A stretch of DNA of 64,000 nucleotides from Candidatus Woesearchaeota archaeon (GCA_018303445.1 JAGVYE010000003.1:2366-66365); one strand, 5' to 3'; counted from the stretch's first letter, positions 3,722 through 64,000 are shown. Notes: a model not told the origin generated them from the sequence alone. Made by a program: numbers and translations.

Positions 3722-3789
3722 CTTGTCAGCTTTATTTCATACTTCAAGTGGTCTCCGCAAGTGGTGCTCCAAACACTTTTCAATAACGC
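3722..3789 (+). repeat. 68-bp conserved intergenic element, copy A. 64/68 identical to copy B at 55765..55832. Ends 50 nt upstream of a + strand start codon
   Basis: cttgtcagctttatttcatacttcaagtggtctccgcaagtggtgctccaaacacttttcaataacgc. Contains a TTTATTT TATA-like box. A partial inverted partner lies at 3630-3667. Confidence 0.6.
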
Positions 3790-3838
3790 CCTAAATTTAG
3801 GAAAAATATATAAAGATTATTTTCTTGCTATCGTAGTG

Positions 3839-6724: not shown

Positions 6725-7132
6725 AAAGGTATGTATTAAGTCTGGGGCTTTAACATCAACCCGTGGGCCTTCTCGCCAATTAAGATCCAGCAAAAAGGGA
6801 ATTCATGAAATGTGAAAAATATCACATTTCAGTACTGAAAATAAATCTCTGTTTATTTTCATGTTCCAAAAGGAATTTTTGCCTTTGAGTTGCAACATCG
6901 CGTTCTCTAGGTTCGTGAAAATTGCTAAAATATCAAAAATCACTCAGAAAGTGAAATGTGCCCACATAGTTTACGACAAAAATAAATTATAAAGCAAGGT
7001 TATAAACTCTCGTTAAGGATTAATTCAGTTTCAACCAATAATCCATAGCTTATTTATGTCGCCAATTAACAAAAGAAAAAGTATATAAATGGCAAGATTT
7101 TCTCTTAAAGTTGAAAAAAAAGGATGAATTAG

Positions 7133-9947: not shown

Positions 9948-9951
9948 GATC

Positions 9952-12240: not shown

Positions 12241-12268
12241 AAAGGTGTTCATGAAAAGGTGAAATAAA

Positions 12269-13822
12269 ATGGTGCAAAGAAAATTTAAATCTTGGATGAT
12301 CATTGGTTTATTCATTTTAATGCTTCCCATAGCGGCCGCGGTTAATTTTAATGTAAATTGTCCTGCTTCATCTCTTTCTGGTCAAAGTTTTACCTGTCAA
12401 GTAAATATGCCGACGCCTCTGGCATCAGGTCTTTCATCATTGAGTTTTACTGCTAATGCTGGCGGAGCAACTATTGCCGTAACTTTTCCCCAAGGCACCA
12501 CGGTCAGCAGTGGCGGCACGTATGGTTTTTTTACTCCTACGCCAGTAACTAATTCTAATCCTTTAGCCTCCGTGCAAATAACTCCTATTACTGGCCAAAC
12601 CTCTGTAACATTACAATTGACTGGTGTGCGAGGACGATTGGGAGATAATACTTTACTTCTTCCTGCAAATCCAGCGCCAAATAATATTGCATTTAATAGT
12701 CCAACAGTAACTATTGGCTCTACTTGTACGTCAACAGGAAATGCAGAAACTAGTTGTAATGGAATAGATGATGATTGTGATGGCAGTGTTGATGAAAATT
12801 TCGTTGGAACGTCTACCACTTGCGGAGTAGGAGTCTGCGTTGCAACTGGATTGACAACCTGTCCGAGAGCTTCAGGTCAAACAACTGTAGGCAATAGCTG
12901 TACTCCTAGAACTCCAATAGCTGAAGTTTGCACTGACAGTTTAGATAATGATTGCGATGGAACGGTTAATGAGGGTTGTACTGTTTGTGTTCCTCGTGAT
13001 CCCACTGCCTGCACAACTGGTGTTGAATGTCCAAGCGGGAATAGTCTTCCAGCTTTAGGCTGTTCTAATGGTCAAAGTTGTCAGGGAAGTCCGGCTAGTT
13101 GTCAACCAACAGCAGCAGGAAATAATCTGCCGGTAGCAGAAGATGATACTTTTACCGTTGTTTTAGGAGCTGGTGCTGGCAGTCTAGAAACTACTTTTAA
13201 TGTTTTAACTAATGATCGAGATCCAGATAATGATGCTTTACGTATTACCAGCACCACTCAACCGGCTAATGGTTTAGTTTCTTTGCCATCAAACCGAAGA
13301 ATTTCTTATCGCAGCAACGCTGGATTTACAGGGACAGATTCATTTACTTACACTATCAGCGATGGCCGCGGCGGAACAGCTACGGCTACGGTAACGGTGA
13401 CAGTGAGTTCTTCTTTAACTTGCACTTTTCGCGCCGCAACTTGCAGTCAAGCAGGTGTTAATTGTCCTGATGGCTCTGGCGGCGAACCTGTTAGTATTGA
13501 CCGGGTAGTTTGCAGCGGTGTAACTCCTTTTTGTAATACTAAAACTGGCTTATGTGAAACTGGCTGTGCGGAAGGAACCTTGTTAGCAGATCCACCTGTG
13601 TGTACTTGTGTTGCTCCTTTGCAGAATGTTGATGGTGTTTGTAAATGTCCTCCTTCAGCAGGAAGGGCTCAGCATCTGGTGAGAGGGCAATGCACACTTT
13701 TACTTACAGAAATTAAAGATTCTTTAGAAAACGATCAGCAATATAGCGGAATAATGCAGAAAGTTTCCCGTATCGCTGAAGCGTTGAAGAATTTCCTGAG
13801 GGCAGTTCATTTAATTAATTAA
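12269..13822 (+). CDS. Secreted Cys-rich protein, paralog of 8460..9947: signal peptide, Ig/cohesin-like N-domain, Cys-rich region, C-terminal conserved GQCTLLLTEIK helix
   Basis: Signal: WMIIGLFILMLPIAAA. N-terminus NVNCPASSLSGQSFTCQVN parallels SITCSPSSVQPGEAVNC in the paralog. Shares the CTFRAATCSQAGVNCPDG...VVCSGVTPFCNTKTGLCE module. Confidence 0.65.
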   Translation: MVQRKFKSWMIIGLFILMLPIAAAVNFNVNCPASSLSGQSFTCQVNMPTPLASGLSSLSFTANAGGATIAVTFPQGTTVSSGGTYGFFTPTPVTNSNPLASVQITPITGQTSVTLQLTGVRGRLGDNTLLLPANPAPNNIAFNSPTVTIGSTCTSTGNAETSCNGIDDDCDGSVDENFVGTSTTCGVGVCVATGLTTCPRASGQTTVGNSCTPRTPIAEVCTDSLDNDCDGTVNEGCTVCVPRDPTACTTGVECPSGNSLPALGCSNGQSCQGSPASCQPTAAGNNLPVAEDDTFTVVLGAGAGSLETTFNVLTNDRDPDNDALRITSTTQPANGLVSLPSNRRISYRSNAGFTGTDSFTYTISDGRGGTATATVTVTVSSSLTCTFRAATCSQAGVNCPDGSGGEPVSIDRVVCSGVTPFCNTKTGLCETGCAEGTLLADPPVCTCVAPLQNVDGVCKCPPSAGRAQHLVRGQCTLLLTEIKDSLENDQQYSGIMQKVSRIAEALKNFLRAVHLIN

Positions 13823-13859
13823 TGGGGTTAGTTTATGAGGGTGAAGATGAGGTTAGTTT

Positions 13860-16331
13860 ATGAAAGTGAAGAGAATAAAAAAAGGCAAGCATAGTGTTTT
13901 ACGGTACAAGTCATTGCCTCCTCACACCAATGAAGCAGTTCCTGTTACACATCTGGGAGAAGTAAGCAAACCTTTTATTATTGTTGCCATTACTATTGCT
14001 GCTATTGTTTTGTTAGCGGTATTCTTAATGTTTAAAGATCAGATTGTTGGAAAAGCGTTTTTTGTGGCTGGTGTAGTAGATACAGCAGGCATCGCAAATC
14101 CTGGTTCAGTTTTGGAGAATACGCCTTTTTCTTTGCTGGTTAGAGCTAACATTGGAACGAAAGAAACAACAGGCATAGAATTTGAATTTCCTTTGCCTAC
14201 AGGATTACGTTGCCGAGTGGCAAATCCAATTGAGAATTTGTTGGGATGGAATGCCCAAAATGGGGCGCTGCTAGAGGAAGCAACGTGCGTGAATAACGTG
14301 GTGCATTTCCGTTATCTTACCGTGAATGGGCAAGAAGCGAAGAGAGGAGAGTTTGATATTGCACGAATTCATGTTGAAGGCGCAGCGGCAGGAACATACA
14401 CTTCAACTTTCCGTCTTTTTAATATTATTAATCTTGCTACTCCTCAAGGCGATATCATTAGCAATGGGTTGGTTGATCCTCTCGTTGTACGACAAGTGGG
14501 ATTCTGTCAGGATAATAGCCAATGCCAGCAAGGAGTATGTAATACGCAAACGAATCGATGTGCGCAATGTGTTGCTGATGCGCAATGCAGTGGAACTACG
14601 CCGATTTGTAATACCCAAACTAACCTGTGTGAAGCTCGTGCGCCTGCCTGTGGCAATCAGCAAATTGATGTAACAGAACAATGCGATGATGGTAATACTG
14701 CAAATGGAGATGGTTGTTCAAGCACTTGTCAAAGAGAAGCACCTCCAGAAATAACTTATCGCGTCAATTGTCCTCAAGATAATATTTCTATAGGTCAAAC
14801 AACAACGTGTGAAATTATTTTAAATCAGGCCGTAACGGAAACATACGGAGAACAATTTACGATTTCCGCTCCTGGATTTACGGCAGCAACTCCATTTATT
14901 GAAGGTGTTACAGGTATTACTGCATCTTCGGCAGGAATTGGAGGAACAACCCTTCTCGTTGAAAGTGATCACTTAACGAGCCGAGGTCAAGCGGCAGGTG
15001 TCGTGGCTCGGTTTACACTTCGCGCGGGAAATGCGGGAGGAATATACACAGTCTCTTTGAGCAACTTAGTCTTGGGAAGTTCTGCTACTTCTGATATGAT
15101 AACAATTTTAGCAGCGGAAAGAGAATGCAGCGCAACTAATAAAGCAGCATGCCAAGATCGAACATCATGCGAAGCTACACTTGTCGGCGGATATTGGTAT
15201 AATAATCAATGCAATACCCAACCGGAATGCCGCGTCAATAATTTAGCTGGCTGTCGAACACAAGCACAGTGTGAAGCGACAGCTATTGGCGGCCGATGGA
15301 ATGCGGCAACAAGCACCTGCAGTGCAGCGCCAACATGCAGCCCAACTAATCTGGCTGTGTGCACACAAACAAACTGTGTTACTGTTGGTCAAGGAGTTTG
15401 GAATACAACGGCAAGCAGCTGTGATACAGCAGTTGAAATTTGTAATGATGGACAAGATAATGATCAAGATACTCAAGTAGATTGCGTCGATACGGAATGC
15501 AGAGGAAGAGCCGGTGCCAATGGCGCTCTCTGTTGCCAAGCAGTAGCTGATTGTCGAGAAGGACAAGAGTGTCAAGCAAATCAGTGTAGAACGGTAACAA
15601 TCCAAACAACAACAACTTCTTCGTCTGGCGGAGGCGGTGGCGGAGGAGGCGGAGGCGGTGGTTGCGTTTCCAATTGGCAATGTGATCTTTGGAGTTACTG
15701 TAACTCTACTTTGCAGAAATCGCGAACTTGCATAGATTTGCGAAAATGTATCCAAAAGCCAAAATTAGAAGTTCAATCCTGTCCTGCTTGTGAAGAATCA
15801 TGGTTGTGTACGTCGTGGAGTCAATGTTTTGGCAGTACAAAAACGAGAACGTGTACTGATGAGCATAAATGTGGAACGTTGCGGCTAAAACCATCAGAGC
15901 AGCAGCAATGCACACTTCCAAGTTCGCAATTGCCTGTGCAACAGGTACAGCAGCCTCAACAGTTTTATGTGCCTCCCCCTTCAGTTCCATATCAAGCTCC
16001 ACAAGTACAAAAGCCAAGCGTCTTTAGGCAATATCAAACGTGGTTTATCAGTGGGGCTTCTCTCTTACTTTTAGTTATAATCTTAGGCCTGGTCTGGCGT
16101 TTAACTCATCGTCCTCAGCAACTGGGTTATAATATCGGTGAATTGAAAGAATGGATTAAACAAGAACAAGCAATGGGAACTTCAAACGAAGACATTAAAG
16201 AAATCCTCTCTGATAAAACGGGATGGACAAAAGAAGAAATTGAAAAGGCCTTTGAAAGTTTAGGAAGCGCGCTCACAGAAGAACAACTTCAATCTTCAGA
16301 AGAACAAATCATGGAAATAGGGGGGAAATAA
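13860..16331 (+). CDS. Giant membrane-anchored surface protein: N-terminal signal anchor, Ig-like domain, Myxococcus-type Cys-rich repeats, poly-Gly linker, 2x W-C-W 6-Cys module, Gln/Pro-rich stalk, C-terminal TM and conserved cytoplasmic tail
   Basis: TM1: FIIVAITIAAIVLLAVFLMF. Motif CDDGNTANGDGCSSTCQ. Linker SSSGGGGGGGGGGGG. Modules CVSNWQCDLWSYC.. and CEESWLCTSWSQC... TM2: ISGASLLLLVIILGLVW. Tail: NEDIKEILSDKTGWTKEEIEKAFESLG. Confidence 0.75.
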   Translation: MKVKRIKKGKHSVLRYKSLPPHTNEAVPVTHLGEVSKPFIIVAITIAAIVLLAVFLMFKDQIVGKAFFVAGVVDTAGIANPGSVLENTPFSLLVRANIGTKETTGIEFEFPLPTGLRCRVANPIENLLGWNAQNGALLEEATCVNNVVHFRYLTVNGQEAKRGEFDIARIHVEGAAAGTYTSTFRLFNIINLATPQGDIISNGLVDPLVVRQVGFCQDNSQCQQGVCNTQTNRCAQCVADAQCSGTTPICNTQTNLCEARAPACGNQQIDVTEQCDDGNTANGDGCSSTCQREAPPEITYRVNCPQDNISIGQTTTCEIILNQAVTETYGEQFTISAPGFTAATPFIEGVTGITASSAGIGGTTLLVESDHLTSRGQAAGVVARFTLRAGNAGGIYTVSLSNLVLGSSATSDMITILAAERECSATNKAACQDRTSCEATLVGGYWYNNQCNTQPECRVNNLAGCRTQAQCEATAIGGRWNAATSTCSAAPTCSPTNLAVCTQTNCVTVGQGVWNTTASSCDTAVEICNDGQDNDQDTQVDCVDTECRGRAGANGALCCQAVADCREGQECQANQCRTVTIQTTTTSSSGGGGGGGGGGGGCVSNWQCDLWSYCNSTLQKSRTCIDLRKCIQKPKLEVQSCPACEESWLCTSWSQCFGSTKTRTCTDEHKCGTLRLKPSEQQQCTLPSSQLPVQQVQQPQQFYVPPPSVPYQAPQVQKPSVFRQYQTWFISGASLLLLVIILGLVWRLTHRPQQLGYNIGELKEWIKQEQAMGTSNEDIKEILSDKTGWTKEEIEKAFESLGSALTEEQLQSSEEQIMEIGGK

Positions 16332-33506: not shown

Positions 33507-35342
33507 TTATATTCCTAAAAGTTCGCTTTTCCGTGCCCCTTTGGGTTTTCCTTTTTTCTTCATAATTAAATACATGCTTCCTAATCCTAGGGCAAGCCCC
33601 ATACCAAAGTACCACCATTCTTTCCGTATCTTCATTCCCCCTATCCTTTCCAGAAATTTCTTTTCTTCCGGGAAATAAATCCCCAGATCACTCATCTCTA
33701 AGGCATATTCTAAATATACTAACGTGGCAGAAGAGGTTTCATTTCTTAATGAATTGGCATATTGATAATAAGAGTAGCCGAGAATAGGAAAGATTCCTTC
33801 GACACTATTTTCGGCAATAAGGCGTTCCACGGCGGTTTGTTTGCTGTTCAGAAAATCTTCAAAGGCCTCGTCTTGAACGCCAATAGAACTCAAAATGGCA
33901 TTCGCTTCTGCTTTGGCCTGTGCTGCGGTAATAAGGCAGAGGGCAAATTCTCCATTAGCGAAAGATCCTTTGGCATCGTCAATCTTTTCTTTAATGTGAA
34001 TGATATTTACTGGACCAATAAATAAAGTTACATATTGATGGCGTTCTTCACTTTCGGCAATTTTTTGCTCACAGGACTTTTGCAATAGTGTCCCCTCAAA
34101 ATGGTATTTTTTTCCTTCCATGTTAAAAAATTGCATCCAGGAAATAGCAGAAAAGTATCGTTCTTCGGTATAAGCTAATAAGCCGTACAGCTCTTCTAGA
34201 GGCTCTTCTTTTTTGCTCTCTTCAAATTTTTTGAGCTGTTGTTTCACGTCGTTGAGGCGTTCTTTAACGACCATGAAAGCTTGTAAGTCTGAAATAGTCT
34301 CAATTTTTTCTAAATCTACTTTTTTTTCTAAAGCATAGTTCTTTTTTTCGATCTTGGCAAAATTTTTGGTTATTTCAGCCCGGTTTAGTTTTTGCAATTT
34401 AAATAAAGCGTTTTTAAGACCGATATTTGCTCCAAAACAAAAACTGGCGGCAGAATAAAAGTCATCTTCCGCGGTAGCATTTTCTGCCCGGCTTTTTTTC
34501 TTTTCCACGGTGGAGAAAGTTTCATTATCCAGAATAAACTTTTCTTTCTGAAATTCCTTTTCAATTTCTGCGGTTCTGGTGCAGAGTTCTTCCTGAAGTT
34601 GTCGCATAATTTCCCGATAGGCCTTGTTTTCTTCTATACTAACATTCTTATGGTTCAGGTCCACGCCAGTGAAATGAAAAATGACTTCATCAAGATCGAC
34701 AACTTCAATAATTTCCAGGCTGAGGTTCTCTTTTCCATATTGTATGAGGTTAAGATGTTCTTCTGTAGTGTTATTTTTAGTAGTATTGGTGATGTTCTCC
34801 GGCAGGATTGGTTTATGAAGGGCCGTCCCTTTGGGGATCAGAACTTTTTGGAGGCCATTTCTTGCGGCAGCTTCCATCTTCTCTTTTACGCCGCCCACAG
34901 GACCAATAATACCTCCAGAATTAATCGTTCCGGTAATGGCTATTTTGTCATCGTATTTTAGATTGAGGATGCCGATTGTGGTTAGAGCGGCAATGGCTGC
35001 TCCGGCGGAAGGACCGCCAATGATATTTGTTTTGGCTTTAATAGTGTAAATAAAATCGTGTTGATTACAATTCAGTTTAAAATGGTTGCAGGCAATGTCT
35101 TTAGCGAAGCGTGTTGAGATCTGAGTGTCAAATTTTGTCAGAGGGAAAGTTTCTAAGAAGACACGGCCAGATCCTTCTTTTATTTCGAGAAATAAATCCG
35201 CGTCGCTTCCCTCGTATTCTTTTCCATCATCCTGCACAGCAAGAAGCTTGAGGTGATATTGTTTATTCTCTTGAGCGTTTACTAAAGAGAGGCTAAAAAT
35301 AAGGATTATTATACAGAAAAATATCGCGGCTCCTTTTTGCAT
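33507..35342 (-). CDS. Secreted, membrane-tethered Lon-like S16 peptidase domain protein lacking an AAA+ module
   Basis: Signal peptide. GGPSAGAAIAALTTIG...GGVKEKMEAAARNG matches the Lon Ser-Lys dyad proteolytic domain. Long alpha-helical region. C-terminal TM FGMGLALGLGSMYLIM. Confidence 0.7.
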   Translation of the reverse strand: MQKGAAIFFCIIILIFSLSLVNAQENKQYHLKLLAVQDDGKEYEGSDADLFLEIKEGSGRVFLETFPLTKFDTQISTRFAKDIACNHFKLNCNQHDFIYTIKAKTNIIGGPSAGAAIAALTTIGILNLKYDDKIAITGTINSGGIIGPVGGVKEKMEAAARNGLQKVLIPKGTALHKPILPENITNTTKNNTTEEHLNLIQYGKENLSLEIIEVVDLDEVIFHFTGVDLNHKNVSIEENKAYREIMRQLQEELCTRTAEIEKEFQKEKFILDNETFSTVEKKKSRAENATAEDDFYSAASFCFGANIGLKNALFKLQKLNRAEITKNFAKIEKKNYALEKKVDLEKIETISDLQAFMVVKERLNDVKQQLKKFEESKKEEPLEELYGLLAYTEERYFSAISWMQFFNMEGKKYHFEGTLLQKSCEQKIAESEERHQYVTLFIGPVNIIHIKEKIDDAKGSFANGEFALCLITAAQAKAEANAILSSIGVQDEAFEDFLNSKQTAVERLIAENSVEGIFPILGYSYYQYANSLRNETSSATLVYLEYALEMSDLGIYFPEEKKFLERIGGMKIRKEWWYFGMGLALGLGSMYLIMKKKGKPKGARKSELLGI

Positions 35343-35854: not shown

Positions 35855-36112
35855 TTCATAAATTCCAAAAGAAATAATAGACAGAAAAATAAAATTGCCG
35901 ACTGAAATTTGATTAGAATATTTTGGGGTTTTGTTTTTCTCTGACAGGTAGATAAAAAGACGATTGAACTTTATAAAAGTTTAGACTCCATTTTTGCAAT
36001 AAAAAAGTGAGGTTTATGTAAATGTAAAATTTCGAGATCTCAAAACAATGATATTCTTCAGCACAGAAAACTTTATTAAATGTTTCTTTTTGCTTACTGT
36101 TAAGGTGACATC

Positions 36113-36979
36113 ATGTTAAAAGATAATGTGAAATTAGAAGTAGTATACCAGGGAAGCAGAGATAGCTTGTCTAAAGGTATTGACGAAGCTGTTGATGGGG
36201 CTTTATTGCAGAGAACCGGGCTAATGCCTGCTGAAGTCTCTTTTGTAGGCGTACGATATAAAGTTACTCTTTTCGCTGCAGCTGCACAACCAGTAGCGCG
36301 ACAAGAAGGAGAAAGCTTGCCAGTTTCCGAAGAACAGACTTATTTGGGAACAAGCACAAGAAATCTTGACGAAGCTATACAGAGTGCGGGACAAAATTTC
36401 CAAGATGCCGCGCGAGAGGCACCTGGTAAATTTGATGAAGCGCGGATTACAGTTGAAGTAACTCAAATCGCAGAAGTTCCTTATTTTGTTCTGCCAGTGG
36501 TAGTGCGATCTATTGATAAAGAAAAATTAGTTGGCTATCATGCGGAAGGAGTTAAGCAATTGGCTGCCACTTATGGCAATCGTTTAAATCAGTCTCCCGA
36601 TGCGGTAGGGTATATGGTGCTTCATACTAAAAAAGATTACCGAAATGATACCTGTTTACCTCGAGAAGGAATAAAAAAAGAGGATATTAAAGCATTTGGT
36701 GTTAGTAGTAAATCACTTGATGATGCCATTAAAAGAGCTGGTAAAAAGCCGCGGAAATCCAAGAGGACGGTGTATGAACAACGTTCAGAGATGATAGTAT
36801 ATGGTTATCCTTGGCGCCAGGAAGTAGTTGAGAAGATTCAAGAAGTAACGATTAATACTAGAGAAGTAGCTGCACCCATGGTTGTTGCCGGGAGTAAGTC
36901 TGGAAGAATGTTCCCACGAGGGGCTCCTCCCGCGGGAAAGGAACCGGTAGCTCTTTCTAGCTTGGCAGAGTTAATGTAA
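36113..36979 (+). CDS. Hypothetical protein with three G-x-S-x3-(A/G)-I-x-x-A-G beta-alpha repeats (dodecin-like?)
   Basis: Repeats GSRDSLSKGIDEAVDGAL, GTSTRNLDEAIQSAGQNF, GVSSKSLDDAIKRAGKK. Converges with and overlaps the 3' end of 36957..38657. Confidence 0.4.
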   Translation: MLKDNVKLEVVYQGSRDSLSKGIDEAVDGALLQRTGLMPAEVSFVGVRYKVTLFAAAAQPVARQEGESLPVSEEQTYLGTSTRNLDEAIQSAGQNFQDAAREAPGKFDEARITVEVTQIAEVPYFVLPVVVRSIDKEKLVGYHAEGVKQLAATYGNRLNQSPDAVGYMVLHTKKDYRNDTCLPREGIKKEDIKAFGVSSKSLDDAIKRAGKKPRKSKRTVYEQRSEMIVYGYPWRQEVVEKIQEVTINTREVAAPMVVAGSKSGRMFPRGAPPAGKEPVALSSLAELM

Positions 36980-38657
36980 TTTTATTAATTATTTTTTTTT
37001 TATATTCTTCTAAGCATAATTCTGATAGTGTTACGGCAAAATGCCCTAAGAACTCAGCAAAAATTCTTGCATACCCGGCAAAAAGGGCGGTTGAATAATC
37101 TGTTCTAAACACGGTTCTGGCGATGCTTTCAATTTGACATTCTTTCCCTTTTATTTTTCGATTGTAAAAAACTAACCTGTCAATAGCATCAAGCATGTAC
37201 GTTGGTTTGTGGTTAAGAATGTGTTCTAATCGTTCGTGTTCGCTTTCAAGAGCAAGAAAACGGACAATTCTGTGATCTTCTATTTGATCAGGACGTAATA
37301 AAAGTGATCTTTCATGGGCTGTAAGTCTTGGTTTTCCTTTTAATCCCTGTCTCTCTAAAGCTTTACTATAACGCTTGAATCTTTCTGCCTCTTTGACATA
37401 AAAAGCGAACAGCGGATCAACATTTTTCAATTTCTCTGTTTCTTTGTCTCTCTCTCCTGGTGTTAGGTAACTTTCTCTTGGTCCTTTTTCATGTTGGTAT
37501 AATGCTTCTGCCGTGGCCATGGCGACTATTACGGCTCCGTGTTCTGATTGCTGTACTCTTTCAAATGATTGATGTGCAGCCAGGATACGATGGCGCTGTA
37601 TATCTGAAGGAGAAGCGCTTTGTTTCATAAGCTCCAGTTCAAATTTTGCTCGTTCTGGAAGAGGAATTTCTTTTAAGCCTTCTAATAGAGGAAGAATGTC
37701 TTCGAGAGGAAGATCTACCATCGGTCTTGGATTCGTGAACTCAGACCAAACCATCCCCGTGCAGTAATAGCCAAGAACTCTTTCTTCTTTCACTCGATGA
37801 TCTGTTCCTAATGTAATTTTATACTCTAATCCTCGGCTTTTAATTCCCGGCCTGTCGATAAGTATACGAGATACAATATCTCCACGACTATTCTCTGATT
37901 TATCGGGAATGAATTTTAAGTACCAGCAAGCTTCAAGAAGCTCTTCGGTCTGCCAAGAGTCAATAAAAGGAATGGCAATGCGTTGCCCTTGATAAAGAAC
38001 AACTTCAGGGTGTGATCTTAAAGCTTTTATATTGGCAACAATTTCGTCTTCATGGTTGTCAATTCTGGCAACAAATTCAAATTTTTGGATCTTATAATCC
38101 CGGCGATGGGTCTTTCCCTGTCTTGCGCTAAAATCTTCGACAGTTACAGTATTGTTTCCAAACCTGATCAGTCCATACATACGCTGAGCTTGGTCAATGG
38201 TCCATAATTCTGGTTTACCTTCTTCTCCGACATCAACAACCACAAGAGCGTGGCCAGCACGTTGTGCGTCGCCTTCTTTCAACAAGCCGCTGAATTCAAC
38301 AAGAACAGGGTTTAAACCGCAAGTTTTGGCAACAACATAATTAGCAATGGCTTGTCCGTAACAATTAGTCATGGAACTTTCATCTGGCCAGGGAGTCCAG
38401 TTATCTGTCTCTAACGCTTCCCGAAACCCGTATCTAAACCGGAGATTTTCAAATAATCTCGTGGCGAGGTCAGCTTTTGTCGCTGTACCATGAGAAAGAG
38501 TTTCTAAAACTCCTGTTTCTTTTAAAAAATTATCTCGAAATTCCTTTTGGAGTGAAGAAGAAAAGTTTATTTTGGCTGGTTGAGGATTTCTAAAAGAAGA
38601 GAAGAGCCGATCTTTAATTTCCTCAGCCCAAGTAATGGTGTGATCAGGAAATGGCAT
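36957..38657 (-). CDS. Transglutaminase-like cysteine protease-fold protein with a large uncharacterised C-terminal region
   Basis: TGL core: NCYGQAIANYVVAKTCG (Cys) ... AGHALVVVDVGE (His) ... D. 566 aa. Confidence 0.6.
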   Translation of the reverse strand: MPFPDHTITWAEEIKDRLFSSFRNPQPAKINFSSSLQKEFRDNFLKETGVLETLSHGTATKADLATRLFENLRFRYGFREALETDNWTPWPDESSMTNCYGQAIANYVVAKTCGLNPVLVEFSGLLKEGDAQRAGHALVVVDVGEEGKPELWTIDQAQRMYGLIRFGNNTVTVEDFSARQGKTHRRDYKIQKFEFVARIDNHEDEIVANIKALRSHPEVVLYQGQRIAIPFIDSWQTEELLEACWYLKFIPDKSENSRGDIVSRILIDRPGIKSRGLEYKITLGTDHRVKEERVLGYYCTGMVWSEFTNPRPMVDLPLEDILPLLEGLKEIPLPERAKFELELMKQSASPSDIQRHRILAAHQSFERVQQSEHGAVIVAMATAEALYQHEKGPRESYLTPGERDKETEKLKNVDPLFAFYVKEAERFKRYSKALERQGLKGKPRLTAHERSLLLRPDQIEDHRIVRFLALESEHERLEHILNHKPTYMLDAIDRLVFYNRKIKGKECQIESIARTVFRTDYSTALFAGYARIFAEFLGHFAVTLSELCLEEYKKKIINKITLTLPS

Positions 38658-38658
38658 T

Positions 38659-40179
38659 TTACATGAGTTTTTCTGAAAGGAGTGTTCTAGGTTTAGCAGG
38701 CTCCATAGGTTGGTTTATTTTTTGATATTGTAAAGGAACATTGCTGGCTATCCTTAGTCTCCATTTTTCATGTTCTCGTTCTAATACTTTTTCGACGACG
38801 ATAGAAAGAATCCGATAATCTGAATGTAACTCTGTAACTTTTCTCACCACATCTCTTGATGCGAATCGCGTTACGCCAAATTCTTCAATAGCTTCTTCCA
38901 CACATTCGATTTGCCGTGCTGTGGGAATGATTTCTTTAAATCTGTAAACAGTAGATTTTGATCTTTCAGGAGAGATTTCTTCTACTCCTGCTGTTGTTCT
39001 TAAGTTTCTCGCAACGTAAATGTTACTTACAGGCAATCCTTGATTTTCGGCAATGCGGTTAAGATGCTCTTTTGTGAATCCTTCATATGCCGGCGGCTGT
39101 TCCCGCAATAAAGCCAAAGCTTTTTTGAAGTAAAAGTCGTTAACTTCCGCTAGATCGGGTGTTTGTAAATGTTTAATCATATAGTCTATGAAACTTTTTT
39201 TGTCTAATCTTTGGCCTGTTTCTCGTCTCATAAAAACTCTGGCTCCAGCCCGCTCTACTTTCTGTAAACAAAAAACTGTCATCTCATATTCTAAATAGTT
39301 AGCGAGTCCTTTTGTCCCTATTACTTCTATGCCTAATTTCTCTTTTACATAAGCAGGACTGATGGCCGTTCCTGAAGTTAGTTTTGTAATATGTTCATAA
39401 ATCAGATATAATTCCTCTAATAGCTTAGGCAGAGTTTCTAAATTCAGATCTCTTTGCTTGTCATTTGGCAGAAGGCTCGGAGGCGCACTAGTTCGTGAAA
39501 ATAGGTTTGTTATTGCCGCTTTTCTGGAGACGATGAAAGGATCAAAATCAGGGCCGTTATAAGCGTCATTTCCCAGTCTTTTTGAAATTTCCTCCGCGGA
39601 AGGAATACGGTAATGGACAGCTTCAATCCCACTTTCGATAAGAGTTCTCAAAGTCGTCTCTACTTTAGATACACTGGCAATAGAACGATGAAGCTGTTCT
39701 CTTTCTCGTTGAGTTTCATCAAGTTGAGAAATTTTTCTTTTTAGGGCTACAACTTTGGTAAGTTCCTCTTCATTCATTTCAATTACGGTTTTTTTTCCTA
39801 ATTTTGTTAAATAATCTCTGTCTGCTTGTCCCTTAGCTAGTTCTTTATCATATTCTTCAAGCAGTCCTTTTTGGGTTTTAATTTCTTCATTTACATTTTT
39901 AATAACTTGTTTTGCATACCTTTGCTGCAGCGTAACCCATTGTTCGGTAATTGCTTCTAAGCGGCTATCTCCAGCTATTGCCGCTACAGTTGCGAATGCG
40001 GCTATTTGTTGCCTTAATTTGAGGTACTCATCATGTTTAATAGGCATTGAAGCTTCCGGAATTCTGATTTGGGGCAGTCCATTAAGAAGTTCTGTTAAAT
40101 TTTTTTTTGCTGGTTCTGTTATTACTGCTGAAATTTCATCAGCCCCGATACATGAAATAATGCGTTGTAATTCGGTCAT
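38659..40179 (-). CDS. Large cytoplasmic hypothetical protein, translationally coupled to the downstream transglutaminase-like gene
   Basis: 506-aa ORF ending 1 nt before the TGL gene start. No motif recognised. Confidence 0.45.
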   Translation of the reverse strand: MTELQRIISCIGADEISAVITEPAKKNLTELLNGLPQIRIPEASMPIKHDEYLKLRQQIAAFATVAAIAGDSRLEAITEQWVTLQQRYAKQVIKNVNEEIKTQKGLLEEYDKELAKGQADRDYLTKLGKKTVIEMNEEELTKVVALKRKISQLDETQREREQLHRSIASVSKVETTLRTLIESGIEAVHYRIPSAEEISKRLGNDAYNGPDFDPFIVSRKAAITNLFSRTSAPPSLLPNDKQRDLNLETLPKLLEELYLIYEHITKLTSGTAISPAYVKEKLGIEVIGTKGLANYLEYEMTVFCLQKVERAGARVFMRRETGQRLDKKSFIDYMIKHLQTPDLAEVNDFYFKKALALLREQPPAYEGFTKEHLNRIAENQGLPVSNIYVARNLRTTAGVEEISPERSKSTVYRFKEIIPTARQIECVEEAIEEFGVTRFASRDVVRKVTELHSDYRILSIVVEKVLEREHEKWRLRIASNVPLQYQKINQPMEPAKPRTLLSEKLM

Positions 40180-40262
40180 TTTACTACTTGAGAATAAAAA
40201 TCTGGCTGGTTTTAAAAGGATTTTGGTTCATTAATCTAATTTTATTAAATGTTAAGTAAACA

Positions 40263-40868
40263 TTAAAACAGAACCGTTTTCCGATACTCTCCAATCTCTT
40301 GTACCGAAATGAGAAGTATGTTCTGTTTTTCGGCGAAATTTTTCAACTCTTTCCCCCGCATCATCGTGCCATCTTTGTTCATGAGTTCGCAAATAACAGC
40401 TACAGGCGGAAGTTTACTCAAGTTGAGTAAATCAATGCTTCCTTCAGTATGTCCCTGCCGCTCTAAAAGCCCCTTCTCTCTCGCTGCTAAAGGGAAGACA
40501 TGACCTGGTCGGGCTAAATCGTTCATCTTTCCGCAGAGCAGTGTTTTAATCGTCGCTGTTCTATCAAAAGCACTTACTCCTCCGTCTCTAATGTTTTTGG
40601 CATCCACAGAAATAGTGAAGGGAGTTTGAAATTTGTCTGAATTCTTTTCTACCATTCTGGGAAGGCCTAATTCCTGCAGGCGTTTCTTAGTCATGGGAAC
40701 GCAAATCACACCAGAACAATGATTAATCATAAACGCGATTTTTTCTGGCGTAACATGTTCTGCGGCCATCATGAGATCAGCTTCATTTTCTCTTTCTGGA
40801 GAATCGAGAATAATGACAAAGTTGCCTTTTCGTAATGATTCTTGAGCTAAAATGATTTTTTCGCGCAT
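40263..40868 (-). CDS. ribB: 3,4-dihydroxy-2-butanone 4-phosphate synthase
   Basis: RENEADLMMAAE, HCSGVICVPM and the GHTEGS family motifs. ~200 aa, typical length. Confidence 0.8.
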   Translation of the reverse strand: MREKIILAQESLRKGNFVIILDSPERENEADLMMAAEHVTPEKIAFMINHCSGVICVPMTKKRLQELGLPRMVEKNSDKFQTPFTISVDAKNIRDGGVSAFDRTATIKTLLCGKMNDLARPGHVFPLAAREKGLLERQGHTEGSIDLLNLSKLPPVAVICELMNKDGTMMRGKELKNFAEKQNILLISVQEIGEYRKTVLF

Positions 40869-40924: not shown

Positions 40925-41374
40925 TTATATAATTCTAATTTTCTCCAGGTCTCGCCATTTTACCCTTTCTTTCTTTCCACCATTTCTCTGGTGTAAGAAA
41001 ATTTCTGTTCCTCTATTTATGACCATATACTCCTCTCCTTTGTAGAAAACCAAATCTCCTTTCTTGAATGATGCTTGTCTAAAAAGGACCGTTCCTCGAT
41101 ACAGTTCTTTACCTTTTTTTTGCGTATGCAGGGTTGCGGTATTAATGATCTGCCCACCAAAGGTTTCCTGAAGTTTCTTCCCCAGAGCTTTTGTAAAAGA
41201 GTTGTCTGTAAGGTAGTAATCATAGCCATTCTGTACTTTCTTAATTTTGGCGATGGGGAGGTGTCCTTTAGTAATTTGCTGTTCAGTAAAAGCAAGTACT
41301 TCTGGAGTGACTTCCCGCAGTTGAAGTATCGCTTCAAAATAGTTGGCGTGTTTTCCTTCCAAAGAACGGACCAT
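40925..41374 (-). CDS. Hypothetical protein, possibly a short NMD3-family homolog
   Basis: YFEAILQLR motif reminiscent of NMD3. Lacks the Zn-binding N-terminus. Low confidence. Confidence 0.3.
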   Translation of the reverse strand: MVRSLEGKHANYFEAILQLREVTPEVLAFTEQQITKGHLPIAKIKKVQNGYDYYLTDNSFTKALGKKLQETFGGQIINTATLHTQKKGKELYRGTVLFRQASFKKGDLVFYKGEEYMVINRGTEIFLHQRNGGKKERVKWRDLEKIRII

Positions 41375-45317: not shown

Positions 45318-46712
45318 ATGTTTAACAAACTAAAAGAAAAACTCAAAAGTGCCTTAAGTATTTTTTCTAAGAAGGCGGAAGAAGCAGCAGTGCCTCTGGA
45401 AAAAGCGCAGGAAGAGGAGGAAAAAATTTCTGAAAAAGCTACGATTTCTCCAAAAGAAGAGGTCGCATCTAAAAAAGAAGCAGGAAAGAAAAAAAAGATT
45501 GAAGAAAAGAAGGACTTTTCTCCAGAAAATCTAACGGAAAAAGTTTCAAAAAAGAAAGAAGAGGCAAAAGAAAAGAAGAAAATAGAAAAAGAGAGGGAAA
45601 AAGTTGGCTTACCAGAAGCCTCGCAACAGAAGAAAGAGGTTCTAGAGGAAAAATCTGTAGAAGTTAAATTAGCCCAAACAGTTCTAGATGAAGAAAAGGA
45701 ATCTCCTTCATTCTTGGAGCGAATTAAAGAAAAGTTTAGAGGAAAGAAGAAGGAAGAAATCACAGAAGAAAAAAAAGATTTTAGAGAAAATGAAATACCT
45801 GCAGAAGAAAATTTTCCAGAGAAAAAAACAGATCAGGAAAAAACCTCTTTTTTTGGAAAAGTAAAACAAACCTTAACGACGAAGACTATTTCTGAAGAAA
45901 AATTTGAAGGATTATTCTGGGAATTAGAACTTGGGTTATTGGAAAACAATGTTTCCGTCAACGTCATTGAAAAAATTAAGGTTGATCTTAAAGAAGAATT
46001 GGTGGAGAAACCCCTGCCTTGGAATGTGGAAAGAAAAATTGAAGAGACGCTGCGCGCAACTCTTAGTACCATTTTATCACAGGAGCCAATAGATCTTTTG
46101 AATAAAATAAACGGCAAAAAGCCTTACATCATTGCTTTCTTTGGTGTCAATGGGGCGGGAAAGACCACGTCGATGGCTAAACTTGCTTATTATTTGCAGC
46201 AACATCATCATTCCGTGGTGTTGGCAGCAGGCGACACTTTTAGGGCCGCGGCGATTCAACAATTACAGGAGCATGCCGATCGTTTAAGTGTTCCCCTTAT
46301 TAAACAGAATTATGGAGCAGATGCAGCGGCTGTCGCTTACGACGCAGTGAGGTATGCGGAGAAAAATAAACTGGATGTTGTTCTCATTGATACGGCAGGG
46401 CGTCTTCATTCCAATACTAATTTAATGGCGGAGTTAGAGAAAATTATTCGTGTGGCAAAACCAGACCTTAAAATTTTTGTTGGCGAAAGCATCACTGGAA
46501 ATGACTGCATTGAACAAGCTGAGAAATTTAACCAACTTGTAGAAATGGATGGGGTAATTTTAACAAAAGCCGATGTTGACGAGAAAGGGGGAGCGCCATT
46601 ATCTATTTCTTATGTGATCAAGAAACCAATTCTTTTCTTAGGGGTCGGACAGCGATATAAAGACTTTGAACAATTTGACAAAGAAAAAATGTTAGAAAGG
46701 TTGGGAATTTAA
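45318..46712 (+). CDS. ftsY: Signal recognition particle receptor FtsY with long K/E-rich N-terminal domain
   Basis: SRP-GTPase NG domain: GVNGAGKTT, DTFRAAA, DTAGR, TKAD. Confidence 0.9.
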   Translation: MFNKLKEKLKSALSIFSKKAEEAAVPLEKAQEEEEKISEKATISPKEEVASKKEAGKKKKIEEKKDFSPENLTEKVSKKKEEAKEKKKIEKEREKVGLPEASQQKKEVLEEKSVEVKLAQTVLDEEKESPSFLERIKEKFRGKKKEEITEEKKDFRENEIPAEENFPEKKTDQEKTSFFGKVKQTLTTKTISEEKFEGLFWELELGLLENNVSVNVIEKIKVDLKEELVEKPLPWNVERKIEETLRATLSTILSQEPIDLLNKINGKKPYIIAFFGVNGAGKTTSMAKLAYYLQQHHHSVVLAAGDTFRAAAIQQLQEHADRLSVPLIKQNYGADAAAVAYDAVRYAEKNKLDVVLIDTAGRLHSNTNLMAELEKIIRVAKPDLKIFVGESITGNDCIEQAEKFNQLVEMDGVILTKADVDEKGGAPLSISYVIKKPILFLGVGQRYKDFEQFDKEKMLERLGI

Positions 46713-48229
46713 AGGAGGTTGTGTCTGGCTTTCTGATGATCATAAGTGAGGTTGGAGATTTTTCGAATAAGATCTCCGCGCGACTTAATCCAGGCACCAT
46801 AGTTCGAAGTTCTTGTTTTCTTTTCAACGATCCCAATTAAAGTATAAGCATGACGTCGTCCGTCCCTGCCTCTGGCATAGAGAATACTCATATCTCCACA
46901 TAGTCTTGCCGTGCTTCCTGTTTTGTTGTACACCAATGTTCCAGTGGGAACTCTCTCTGCTCCGGTATAAACTCTATCCCTTCCAGGAAGGGCCATTAAT
47001 CTTCGCATTTCTCTTGCTTGAGGAAGATCATCATTCCATAAAGCGTATAGGAAACGACTGTAGTCATGTGCTGAGGCTTTATTTCTGTAGGTTTGTCCTC
47101 CGCTAGGGATGTATTCTACTATAGATATATCTTTAAAGATATTTCCATAATGTTCAGTTAAAATTCTTTTCATGGCTTGAGGTCCGCCAACTTGCCGCAT
47201 TACCCAGTTTGTGGAAGCATTGTTACTTTTTTGAATCATTTTTTTCATATGCTTTTTAGCTTCTGCGTTGTATTGACGTTTTCCTTGTTGCACTAAATGA
47301 AAATAGGCGAGGGCAGCAAATGGTTTCATCATACTCGCACTCTGTCTTGGAGCGTCTTCGTTTATAGAAACAATTTTCTCTCCGGTTGTAAAGTCATATA
47401 CTGACCAAGAAGTTTGTTCATCAGCAGTGCGATGATTTTGTACATACTTTTCAATTTTTCTTTCCAGACTGTCGGGAGCAACTGGTCTCCTTGGTTCAGA
47501 AAATTTTCTGGGAGGTTTAATGGGAGGTTCTGTTTCGTCTAAGTAACTTGATTCTCCGTATTCAACTTGATTATTATTTTCCAGAATCGTGGAAGGGTTG
47601 AAACCTTTTTCTTGCAGTAATGTTTTATGCCGCTCTGCTATATTTCTCGTTGAATTCTCATCTCCACGTCGTCTCCAGACGAGAGCATATTTTCCATTTA
47701 CTCTTTCAATAACAAGGTTTTTTCCTACTTCTGGACCTAAAGTTCTATAAACTGTTTCGAAACTTCTTTTTAGAGCGTTAACACTTGTTCCTTTCTTATA
47801 TTCTACATTGAACAAGTCATGATAACCTTCATCTTTGATGATGACTGCTCTGTCAAGTTCCGCTTGCTGAAGAAGTTTGTGATGGTGTTGTGCTGTTTTT
47901 TCCGCATCAGTTTTGGACGCATTTCGGTCATAAATAAGACCAAATCTACCGGAAGTTCCTTGGACAATATGAAGTTCTCGTGCTACATCTGGACCTAATA
48001 TTCGAGCTACATCTTCTTGATAATCCAAGACGGCTTCAATATCTGGATGCCAAAGATAGGAGACATCATATTTTTCTGCTTGCGCCTGAGCCGTTGCAGG
48101 ATGGCTTGCGAGTGTTGACAAAAATGCGGCTATGCCAGCACCTAAAGCGGTATCTCTTGCCAACTGTCTTCTCGTTCTGGGACTTTCCTTCCCAATGCTG
48201 AATAATACCTCTTCTAGTAATTGTAACAT
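46709..48229 (-). CDS. Class A beta-lactamase/D-Ala-D-Ala-carboxypeptidase-like serine hydrolase with Tat-type signal and two SPOR-like repeats
   Basis: TRRQLARDTALGAGIAAF (twin-Arg). Repeats ..GRFGLIYDRNASKTDAEKTAQ.. and ..GKYALVWRRRGDENSTRNIAERH... S-x-x-K (SMMK), S-T-N, K-T-G (NKTGS) motifs. Confidence 0.65.
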   Translation of the reverse strand: MLQLLEEVLFSIGKESPRTRRQLARDTALGAGIAAFLSTLASHPATAQAQAEKYDVSYLWHPDIEAVLDYQEDVARILGPDVARELHIVQGTSGRFGLIYDRNASKTDAEKTAQHHHKLLQQAELDRAVIIKDEGYHDLFNVEYKKGTSVNALKRSFETVYRTLGPEVGKNLVIERVNGKYALVWRRRGDENSTRNIAERHKTLLQEKGFNPSTILENNNQVEYGESSYLDETEPPIKPPRKFSEPRRPVAPDSLERKIEKYVQNHRTADEQTSWSVYDFTTGEKIVSINEDAPRQSASMMKPFAALAYFHLVQQGKRQYNAEAKKHMKKMIQKSNNASTNWVMRQVGGPQAMKRILTEHYGNIFKDISIVEYIPSGGQTYRNKASAHDYSRFLYALWNDDLPQAREMRRLMALPGRDRVYTGAERVPTGTLVYNKTGSTARLCGDMSILYARGRDGRRHAYTLIGIVEKKTRTSNYGAWIKSRGDLIRKISNLTYDHQKARHNLL

Positions 48230-61334: not shown

Positions 61335-62902
61335 ACTCCCGTTGATCCTGCGGGAGATTGCTGCTATGGGAGTTCGATTAAGCCATGCAAGTCAGAGGGC
61401 TGTCGCAAGACAGCACAGGCTGAATGCTCAGTAACACGTCAATAATCTGCCCTAAGGCTCAGGATAACCATGGGAAACTGTGGATAAAACTGGATAAGGG
61501 ATTGGTACTGGAATGTCCTTTCCTCTAAAGGTAACACCTTAGGATGAGTTGGCGGCCGATTAGCTTGTTGGTAGGGTAACGGCCTACCAAGGCAACGATC
61601 GGTACGGGCCGTGAGAGCGGTAGCCCGGAGAGGGGTACTGAGACACTGACCCCAGCCCTACGGGGTGCAGCAGGCGCGAAAACTTTACAATGTACGTAAG
61701 TGCGATAAGGGAACTCCCAGTGCTCATGCATAAGCATGGGCTTTTGCCAAGCGCAAATAACTTGGAGAATAAGTGGTGGGTAAGACGGGTGCCAGCCGCC
61801 GCGGTAACACCTGCGCCACGAGTGGCAATCGCTTTTATTGGGCCTAAAGCGTTCGTAGCCGGATGAGAAAGTCTTGAGTGAAATCGTTGCGCTTAACAAA
61901 ACGGCGCGCTTGAGATACTACTTATCTTGGGACCGGGAAGCGTTAGGGGTATTCCTGAGGGAGCGGTAAAATGCAATAATCTCAGAAGGACCACCTGTGG
62001 CGAAGGCGCCTAACGAGAACGGGTTCGACGGTGAGGAACGAAAGCTAGGGGAGCAAACCGGATTAGATTCTGGGTCTTTTTGTTGTTGTATAGGTTATTA
62101 TTTTGTCTGTTTGCGAAATTTACGATGATAAAATAAACTGATCAAAGGGCACCAGCTAATTACCCGAGTAGTCCTAGCTGTAAACGCTGTGTACTAGATG
62201 TTGCATATTCTTCGTGAATGTGCAGTGTCGGAGTGAAGACATTAAGTACACCGCCTGGGAAGTACGGTCGCAAGGCTGAAACTTAAAGGAATTGGCGGGA
62301 GAGCACCACAAGGGGTGCGGCGTGCGGTTTAATTTAACTCAACGCAGTGCATCTCACCAGTAGCGACGGCAGAATGATGGTCAGTCTGAAGGGCTTACCA
62401 AACGAGCCGAGAGGTAGTGCATGGCCGTCGTCAGCTCGTGCCGTGAGGTGTCCTCTTAAGTGAGGTAACGAGCGAGACCCATACCTATAATTGCCAGCGG
62501 GTGCTACGGCATGACCGGGCACATTATAGGGACTGCCTGGGAAACCAGGAGGAAGGTGTGGGCAACGGTAGGTCTGTACGCTCCGAATCTACTGGGCTAC
62601 ACGCGCGCAACAATGGCGAGAACAATGGGATGCAACACCGAAAGGTGAAGCTAAACCTCCAAATCTCGTCTTAGTCTAGATTGAGGGTTGTAACTCACCC
62701 TCATGACACCGGAATCCCTAGTAATCGGGCTTCAACATGGCCCGGTGAATATGTCCCTGCTCTTTGCACACACCGCCCGTCAAACCAACCGAGTTGGGTC
62801 TAGGTGAGATGTATCTTTGAGGTATATCGAATCTAGATTCGGTGAGGTGGGTTAAGTCGTCACAAGGTAGCCGTAGGGGAACCTACGGCTGGATCACCTC
62901 CT
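61335..62902 (+). rRNA. 16S rRNA (archaeal) with a ~93-nt insertion at 62069..62161
   Basis: 5' end TCCCGTTGATCCTGCGGGAG. Archaeal 515-region CAGCCGCCGCGGTAACACC. 3' end GGATCACCTCCT. GGATTAGAT|...|ACCCGAGTAGTCC is interrupted by an AT-rich insert. Confidence 0.9.
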
Positions 62903-62960
62903 TTTTTTATTTACTCTCAGAGTAAGTAAAAGTACTCAGTTAGAGTACATATATGTACCT

Positions 62961-63046
62961 GGGCCCGTAGCTCAGGGGTAGAGCGCCTGCCTTGCAGGTC
63001 AGTCCTAGAACGCAGGAGGCCTCGGGTTCAAATCCCGACGGGTCCA
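62961..63046 (+). tRNA. tRNA-Ala (TGC) in the 16S-23S spacer, with a 14-nt intron (62997..63010) at the canonical 37/38 position
   Basis: GGGCCCGTAGCTCAGGGGTAGAGCGCCTGC-CTTGCA[ggtcagtcctagaa]C-GCAGGAGGCCTCGGGTTCAAATCCCGACGGGTCCA. Cloverleaf intact once the intron is removed. No encoded CCA. Confidence 0.85.
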
Positions 63047-63206
63047 TTCCCTATGGGGAAAGAACGTTCCTGAAAATCCTTCTGGATTTCTGGGACACGA
63101 CGTTATCGACAACAACGTTGTTGGTAGCGATTGGTTGAGTTTGATGGAGCATGTATTCAACATGCGAGATAACATCATAATAATGAGCCATATGTAGATC
63201 AAAGTA

Positions 63207-64000
63207 CATCTAGGCATGCTGCTAGATGGATGACTCGGTTCAAAACGCCGATGAAGGACGTGACAAGCTGCGAAAAGTTCCGGCGAACTGAACGTAAGTG
63301 TTGAACCGGAAATTTCTGAATGGGACTTCCCATAACATACCCTTTGGGGTAAGGGAACGCAGGGAATTGAAGCGTCTTAGTACCTGCAGGAAGAGAAATC
63401 AATTGAGATGCCGTGAGTAAGAGCGACCGAAAGCGGTGTAGTCCAAACTGAATCCGTCATAGTAATGTGATGGAGATGTGGTGTTACGGACTTCCTTTTC
63501 CATCATTATTCTGACTTGAAGTTCTCTGGAAAGAGGCACGATACAGGGTGATAGTCCCGTAAAGGTAAGAATGATGATGTTGGAAGTATCCTGAGTATCA
63601 TACCTTGGAAATGGTGTGAGAAGATGGGGGGCATTAACCTCTAAGACTAAATACGTTTTGAGTCCGATAGAACATAGTACCGCGAGGGAACGTTGAAAAG
63701 AACCCCTGACCGGGTGTTAAAAGACTCTGAAATCTAGCAGCTATAGTATGGTAGGGCATTTCGGTGTTCTACCGTGCTCTTTGGATAAAGCGCCAGGGAG
63801 TGTGCTTCTGTGGCAAGGATAACCTGAAGAGGGGAATCCATAGGGAAACCAAGACTCCGCACGCAAGGAGGGAGGCGGTATGAAAGTGCCGTAAGTCACA
63901 GGGGCATGACCTGAAGCCGGGTGATCTACTCCTGGGTAAGGTGAAGCGGGGGTAAAACCTCGTGGAAGCCTGAAGAGGTTCTGCGAGCAAGCGTTCTTCT
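63207..64000 (+). rRNA. 23S rRNA, 5' partial (continues beyond the window)
   Basis: GGATGACTCGGTTC...CGATGAAGGACGTG...AAGCTGCGAAAAG and GTACCGCGAGGGAA are 23S domain-I signatures. Confidence 0.8.

Follow-up and report, generated by a model that had tools for sequence, protein, structure and literature searches.

A bacterial cassette for peptide synthesis and modification is defined by exactly three domains, namely a circularly permuted ATP-grasp (CP_ATPgrasp), Alpha-E and a transglutaminase domain (PMC3597751). Vasohibin, a transglutaminase-like peptidase with a Cys-His-Leu(carbonyl) triad, needs a small partner, SVBP, and acts as a tubulin carboxypeptidase, cleaving off the final residue of tubulin's disordered tail; a prokaryotic relative, CPR-C4, is restricted to the candidate phyla radiation, CPR (PMC9108980). 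The locus described here lies in a 64,000-nt stretch of DNA from a Candidatus Woesearchaeota archaeon (GCA_018303445.1 JAGVYE010000003.1:2366-66365; hereafter the window), in which positions 36113-40179 are occupied by three genes designated A, B and C. An earlier model-generated reading of this DNA, referred to below as the original prediction, described three large, uncharacterised cytoplasmic proteins, one of them with a transglutaminase-like core, and likened them to the bacterial cassette. The three genes form a strictly co-conserved unit in which B carries an invariant Cys-His-Asp triad and A and C end in C-terminal tails of the same type. It is tentatively proposed, as a reading that falls short of an even chance, that the trio is a soluble, chromosomal three-protein system in which B is a thiol enzyme that docks or processes the tails shared by A and C.

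Genes A (38659-40179; 506 aa) and B (36957-38657; 566 aa) are encoded on the minus strand and gene C (36113-36979; 288 aa) on the plus strand, and the three open reading frames (ORFs), the coupling of A to B and the convergent orientation of C were all confirmed as originally read. The A stop codon is separated from the B start codon by a single nucleotide (ATG TAA a ATG), a 1-nt gap being found in six of 10 loci, and the 3′ end of B overlaps that of the convergent C by 23 nt. AT-rich, TATA-like elements can be detected ~30-40 nt 5′ of both the A and the C start codons. That of A, TTTTAAAA (40210-40217, minus strand), is located 31-38 nt 5′ of the ATG and is the putative promoter of an A-B transcription unit of which A would be the first gene; C is preceded by a candidate element, TTTATTAAA (36072-36080, plus strand), and by a Shine-Dalgarno-like GGTGA (36104-36108, plus strand), all three having been read from the sequence. 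Taken with the gene spacing and overlap, the TATA-like elements point to two convergent transcription units. No 19-residue segment of A, B or C is strongly hydrophobic (maximum Kyte-Doolittle 1.38), which is consistent with soluble, cytoplasmic proteins and in this respect supports the description originally given of the cluster.

In every related locus with enough flanking sequence, homologs of A, B and C that are 30-55% identical over their entire length are arranged in the same order, and all three ORFs are, judging from these alignments, real genes. By tblastn and ORF analysis, the arrangement in which A precedes B and C converges upon it was found in 10 distinct B-anchored contigs, comprising all those with enough flank; A homologs (24-47% identity) are positioned directly upstream of B, and C homologs (28-47% identity) convergent to it, in all loci. 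Two further, diverged trios (contigs L026 and L015; about 24-31% identity) retain this gene order. When the search was anchored on C, all five loci carried B, with A present wherever the contig reached, these loci mostly re-sampling lineages already found from B. Only 17 close homologs of B were detected among 5.8 billion clustered proteins, the named ones originating from Nanoarchaeota and Woesearchaeota metagenome-assembled genomes, and the B of the window falls into a cluster with a Candidatus Woesearchaeota protein; a relative is encoded in only six of 185,579 species-representative genomes. The genes flanking the trio vary between loci and include housekeeping genes such as ribB, TYW1 and those for aminoacyl-tRNA synthetases and ribosomal proteins, and since the order of the trio is the same amid these differing flanks, the trio itself is the conserved unit. 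The phyletic check suggested alongside the original prediction shows it to be strictly co-conserved, contrary to the lack of co-conservation named there as a refuting outcome, and confined to a narrow group of DPANN (Diapherotrites, Parvarchaeota, Aenigmarchaeota, Nanoarchaeota and Nanohaloarchaeota) archaea.

A confident AlphaFold model of B (mean predicted local distance difference test, pLDDT, 82.4; predicted template modelling score, pTM, 0.77) consists of four parts, a disordered segment (residues 22-57), an alpha/beta domain (~58-235), a beta-rich domain (225-317) and a helical domain (318-566). Residues 58-235 (37953-38486, minus strand) are assigned as a catalytic domain resembling those of transglutaminases, arylamine N-acetyltransferases (NATs) and papain, on the basis of the model, Foldseek matches and conservation of the triad Cys99 (38361-38363), His136 (38250-38252) and Asp155 (38193-38195), all on the minus strand. 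In the model Cys99 starts helix 99-112, His136 is found within strand 133-142 and Asp155 ends strand 151-155, a geometry which, with the invariance of the triad, bears out the transglutaminase-like core originally proposed. C99, H136 and D155 are present in all 17 close homologs, and among 136 diverse homologs of the domain the Cys is retained in 136, the His in 135 and the Asp in 129; an exhaustive HMMER search yielded 151 B representatives at E<=1e-3. B is very probably catalytically active.

The C-terminal tails of A and C each consist of a low-complexity linker of variable length that leads to a hydrophobic residue and Met-COOH. The A tail (residues 488-506; 38662-38718, minus strand) is disordered, with pLDDT <50 for residues 492-506, and ends ...SEKLM-COOH, and the C tail (residues 264-288; 36902-36976, plus strand) is flexible and, beyond its linker, semi-conserved, conforming to R-G-A-[SP]-P-A-G-x-x-P-V-x-L-S-S-x-x-x-L-M-COOH. 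Nine of 10 core-clade A proteins terminate in [LIF]-M and 11 of 11 core-clade C proteins in [LFM]-M, M288 being invariant. This kind of ending is specific to the two families: among ~160 crude gene calls from 10 loci, 19 end in [LIVFM]-M and every one belongs to the A or the C family, and B has no hydrophobic-Met tail. The possibility that the terminal LM is a DNA-level artefact of gene overlap or stop-start coupling was rejected, as it persists where A and B are up to 92 nt apart and B and C up to 109 nt; being independent of gene overlap and spacing, the motif therefore acts at the protein level.

Neither single-sequence nor profile searches assigned B to any family in Pfam, NCBIfam, PADLOC, PHROGs or PDB sequences, and a deep profile of 32 sequences, restricted to the catalytic domain, still gave no curated-family match; ten distant B relatives contained no Pfam domain, so that no annotation could be transferred through them. 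Bact_transglu_N and Transglut_core are absent from the 17 B members, a Transglut_core3 match at E 0.17 in one of the 17 being the only related signal, and Pfam NAT matched none of them. B is thus a new family within the known transglutaminase superfold, and A and C are likewise unannotated families. Structural comparison by Foldseek returned NATs as the best matches, together with TglA, PeiP/PeiW, 3isr, PNGase and Rad4, every relevant match being a member of the Cys-His-Asp transglutaminase/NAT superfold, and a search of BFVD returned viral NAT and transglutaminase models only, of a generic kind. With the NATs (e.g. E. coli NhoA, PDB 4dmo, 4nv7, 2ija), which it matches over ~300 columns in Foldseek, B shares a Cys that opens a helix, a His and an Asp carried by the strands that follow, and a similar spacing of these residues (C69/H107/D122 in NhoA vs C99/H136/D155); alignment of the B N-domain profile with NhoA by hhalign places the triads in register, with a probability of only 7% (P 0.005). 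Unlike NATs, it falls outside the NAT sequence families, is twice as long owing to a beta domain containing the motif RPGIKSRGLE and a 250-aa helical domain, and is always encoded with two partner proteins. The transglutaminase-like peptidases and amidases, including the pseudomurein endoisopeptidases PeiP/PeiW, 3isr, PNGase and TglA (9crn), share with B the superfold and type of triad (Foldseek probabilities up to 1.0 over 100-180 columns, E 0.03 or worse), and PNGase and Rad4 likewise function together with dedicated partners; however, beyond the single E 0.17 signal B lacks a Transglut_core-type Pfam match, and its accessory domains differ. Like CPR-C4, B is a lineage-restricted orphan family in ultra-small prokaryotes, although it utilizes a Cys-His-Asp triad rather than that of vasohibin. 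No earlier description of a module with matching partner tails, nor of TglA, was found in the literature searchable here.

The RPGIKSRGLE sequence of the beta-rich middle domain (residues 269-278; 37824-37853, minus strand) forms a loop and strand located between strands 259-267 and 274-283 of the model and is invariant in all 17 close homologs. The diverged trios of L026 and L015 keep it as RP[GL][IM][KQ]xRGL[ED], whereas a sister clade of B-like genes that lacks A (see below) does not. The all-helical C-terminal domain (residues 318-566; 36960-37706, minus strand), delimited by the model and by conservation, contains the conserved motifs VEALYQ, DAIDR and EFLGH, which are kept only in lineages with the trio; taken by itself, the domain gave no fold or sequence match.

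No Pfam, NCBIfam or PDB sequence match was obtained for A, apart from weak matches of the coiled-coil type in Pfam and PADLOC. Its AlphaFold model (m6ea618c33344; pLDDT 76, pTM 0.43) was built on five sequences, the same five that were returned by a profile search for further homologs, and shows, in order, a helical N-terminus, a coiled-coil hairpin, a disordered linker, three winged-helix-like units and the disordered tail. The hairpin is long and antiparallel (residues 74-187; 39619-39960, minus strand), being formed by helices 74-128 and 137-187 with pLDDT ~80-90, and the winged-helix-like units (residues 252-487; 38719-39426, minus strand) correspond to residues ~252-318, 327-414 and 421-487, each with the order helix-helix-helix-strand-strand in the model. 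Foldseek matches, all of them weak, were to the Pol III subunit 8iue_P, ESCRT-II, the JetA kleisin and PadR 4esf (probability 1.0, 68 columns), that is, to tandem winged-helix or helical scaffold proteins, with no ATP-grasp fold among them. Like C, A has no catalytic signatures, and it is regarded as a non-enzymatic partner or scaffold.

Dodecins consist of one ~68-aa domain of beta-alpha-beta-beta fold and assemble into dodecamers that bind flavin. The C protein resembles them (PF07311) in containing G-x-S-x-x-S-L-D-[DE]-A motifs, which recurrently bring up sub-threshold Dodecin matches, in five of seven family members, but differs in its length and long tail, in having two or three units and in a conserved PYF...RS core. 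Of the three dodecin-like repeats originally reported in C, two are clear copies: copy 2 (GTSTRNLDEA, residues 79-88; 36347-36376, plus strand), identified by motif scan and the site of the Pfam Dodecin match in the C protein of L015, and copy 3 (GVSSKSLDDA, residues 196-205; 36698-36727, plus strand), which is covered by the sub-threshold Pfam match. The first unit is weaker, and the match itself stays below the cut-offs, with 18.9 bits over residues 193-218 against a Pfam gathering cut-off of 22.5, and 17.9 against the 75 needed in NCBIfam. Internal repeats found with hhalign are likewise weak (P 6e-5 over 14 columns for repeat 2 vs 3, and 7e-4 over 33 columns).

B-like genes of a sister clade (neighbourhoods L016:3969-9845, L018:5580-9513 and L019:145-6711) share ~25% identity with B in the N-domain only. 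Directly upstream of each B-like gene is one for a small protein of 125-137 aa, which contains dodecin-like motifs and has a Pro/Ala/Ser tail that ends in hydrophobic residues, and downstream is a convergent pair encoding a 529-aa protein with a weak AAA_5 match (47% identical between loci) and a protein of ~670-707 aa. No homology was found between A and the 529-aa or ~700-aa proteins. The alignment of C with the small upstream proteins is colinear but weak (P 0.002, probability 13%), and homology between them is suggested rather than established; the sister-clade neighbourhood may represent a second, related module. Elsewhere, L017:5596-8670 encodes a B-like protein of 889 aa that is very acidic, resembles P0093 and P0157 (850-913 aa) and is possibly of halophilic DPANN origin; its gene is preceded by one for another acidic protein, of 125 aa, and directly follows a GrpE-DnaK-DnaJ cluster.

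It is proposed that B is an enzyme and that A, with its coiled coil and winged helices, and C, with its dodecin-like repeats, would be its dedicated partners. Since a Cys-His-Asp triad is present in a transglutaminase/NAT/papain-type fold, Cys99-His136-Asp155 should form a thioester (acyl-enzyme) intermediate, from which B would hydrolyse or transfer an acyl or peptidyl group. B would recognise A and C through their common C-terminal handle, which it would dock or trim, and a candidate site for binding of the terminal carboxylate is the RPGIKSRGLE loop, which is both basic and invariant. Such action at the extreme C-terminus of a disordered tail would parallel that of vasohibin-SVBP as a functional analogy, not as homology. 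In favour of the proposal are the co-conservation of the trio, the A-B coupling, the fold class and retained triad of B and the specificity of the tails; in addition, the B loop and C-terminal motifs are kept only in lineages having A and C, a small, dodecin-motif protein with a hydrophobic-ended tail is once more encoded upstream of the B-like genes in the sister clade, and the tails of A and C in L026 change together, to Leu-Val and Leu-Leu. The same L026 tails weigh on the other side, as neither ends in hydrophobic-Met, and tail identity is not absolute elsewhere, given that the A protein of L005 ends in RLV and that of L015 in ALA, though L015 C keeps Leu-Met while its A ends Leu-Ala. Also counting against the proposal are the weak Foldseek statistics of B (E>=9e-3, template modelling score, TM, <=0.38 for PDB, with probabilities 0.85-1.0), the fact that its best fold matches are acetyltransferases and not peptidases, and the absence of vasohibin from its 50 best fold matches, which leaves that parallel an analogy only. 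The loci are phylogenetically related, so that their counts overstate the number of independent observations; physical interaction among A, B and C, the tail as ligand or substrate of B and the chemistry are inferred, and an unlinked cellular hub might just as well be what the shared tails dock onto. A more specific form of the proposal, in which the trio would be an archaeal tail-directed processing or conjugation system, with B thioesterifying, trimming or transferring the A and C tails as a DPANN-unique switch or tagging device built from a new branch of the superfold and two new families, is quite improbable.

Among other explanations, B might be a NAT-like, acyl-CoA (coenzyme A)-dependent acyltransferase acting on a small molecule or a protein amine, with A and C as regulators or substrates whose tails serve another purpose. 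The top PDB and viral fold matches, to NATs over ~300 columns, agree with this, as do the Cys-x37-His-x18-Asp spacing and a local context that aligns with Cys69/His107/Asp122 of NhoA, and the invariant Arg/Lys loop could bind CoA phosphates; yet the low hhalign probability against NhoA (7%), the absence of Pfam NAT from the 17 members and the TM of <=0.38 all argue otherwise, the RGGxC context of NATs is replaced in B by xxNCYGQ, and the shared tails of A and C are left unexplained; an NAT-like role is unlikely. Less likely still is a nucleic-acid-associated complex, in which A would bind DNA or RNA through its winged helices and dimerise through its coiled coil, B would act on chromatin or nucleoprotein and the tails would bind an external hub. 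The architecture of the A model and its matches to the Pol III subunit, PadR, the JetA kleisin and ESCRT-II suggest such a complex, as do a GntR-type winged helix-turn-helix match at E 0.04 in two of 10 A members and the occurrence among the B fold matches of Rad4 and PNGase, transglutaminase-fold proteins that act with partners. However, the net charge of A is only +2, all of the fold matches are weak, winged-helix domains bind protein as often as DNA, the B triad is intact, unlike that of Rad4, and no conserved DNA-metabolism genes neighbour the trio.

Thiol acyl-enzyme chemistry would also suit transpeptidation, and it is conceivable that B is a transpeptidase or ligase that transfers C, or the C tail, onto target proteins with A as scaffold. 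The flexible, conserved C tail is reminiscent of ubiquitin-like and Pup-like tags, cullin-type scaffolds recur among the weak A fold matches and a ThiF/E1-like gene is found near the trio in L015. Against this, conserved Gly-Gly, Gln or Lys residues are missing from the tails, C is not of the beta-grasp type, ThiF neighbours the trio in one locus only, the cullin matches have a TM of ~0.13 and the same tail on A would be odd for a scaffold. A tagging system is very unlikely. The narrow distribution of the trio, and the PIN and MazE-type genes near it in L003, L005 and L006, could be taken to indicate virus, plasmid or defence-island cargo rather than a core cellular system. No relative was detected, however, in 2.9 million viral contigs, there is no PHROG or PADLOC family match beyond coiled-coil noise, the flanks are housekeeping genes, the GC content of the trio is that of its surroundings (~39% across the whole window) and no integrases or repeats occur at its borders; cargo of this kind is most improbable. 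The likeness to the CP_ATPgrasp/Alpha-E/Bact_transglu_N cassette, as seen in the original prediction, comes down to a transglutaminase-fold protein in a small gene cluster, and hardly any probability attaches to it. The cassette is bacterial and the trio archaeal, and all three of its defining Pfam domains are absent: CP_ATPgrasp (PF04174/PF14403) was not found in A, B or C at E<=0.01 or in ten A members at E<=1, Alpha-E (PF04168) matched no A, B or C family member (including the ten A members at E<=1), and B lacks both Bact_transglu_N and Transglut_core. With a model of coiled coil and winged helices and no ATP-grasp fold match as well, the ATP-grasp or alpha-E identity of A was rejected, an outcome which the original prediction had itself named as refuting it.

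The neighbourhoods of the trio differ in several respects. In the window, which is archaeal and contains a 16S-tRNA-23S operon at 61335-64000, ribB, encoding 3,4-dihydroxy-2-butanone 4-phosphate (DHBP) synthase of the riboflavin pathway, is located directly upstream of gene A (40263-40868, minus strand). A link to flavin, through ribB and the dodecin-like motifs of C, was considered and treated as coincidence, as ribB is present at no other trio locus. Beyond ribB is a gene for a 149-aa protein (40925-41374, minus strand) whose similarity to the NMD3 family is confined to the C-terminal part of the profile (positions 141-240 of 243) and which is predicted to be a truncated or minimal NMD3-like protein. 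On the other side of the trio, a 611-aa protein (33507-35342, minus strand) is annotated solely by a Lon protease C-terminal (S16) domain at residues 110-193, close to the N-terminus, with no AAA+ module detected and the remaining ~400 residues unannotated. A second 506-aa ORF (46709-48229) was examined as a paralog of A and rejected, as it encodes a beta-lactamase-fold protein. At a greater distance are a series of large, probable surface proteins (3761-16331, plus strand) typical of DPANN cell-surface arsenals, comprising a 987-aa Laminin_G_3 protein, a 762-aa protein with nine DUF4215 repeats, a 517-aa Big_9/cadherin-like protein and an 823-aa DUF4215 protein, and, in the 16S-23S spacer, an 88-nt tRNA (62960-63047, plus strand; Rfam tRNA score 62.9 bits) for which ARAGORN gives no anticodon (tRNA-???) and which is possibly intron-containing or otherwise atypical. 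Two trio loci in other contigs, L005 and L006, have in common an upstream block (L005:1770-5930; L006:1833-6116) that is not found in the window. Its products are a PIN_9 protein, a protein of 276-282 aa, a MazE-like one of ~320 aa and another of 432-443 aa, the last being 33% identical between the two loci. The diverged trio of L015 has just upstream of it the ThiF (E1-like) gene and an unannotated 432-aa gene (L015:1105-3810), an arrangement seen in L015 only.

DPANN genomes are tiny, with a large share of genes lacking a known function, and conserved hypothetical clusters are common in them; if B does not act on the tails, the trio would be one of many such clusters. A tightly packed, strictly co-conserved module of 4 kb in such small genomes nevertheless likely provides something that the cells need, and the combination of a shared tail with an invariant triad makes it unusually tractable, offering an active-site Cys, two candidate partners and a two-residue C-terminal handle. 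If B does act on the tails, the trio would represent a prokaryotic counterpart of the vasohibin-like, tail-directed enzymes and would comprise three new protein families.

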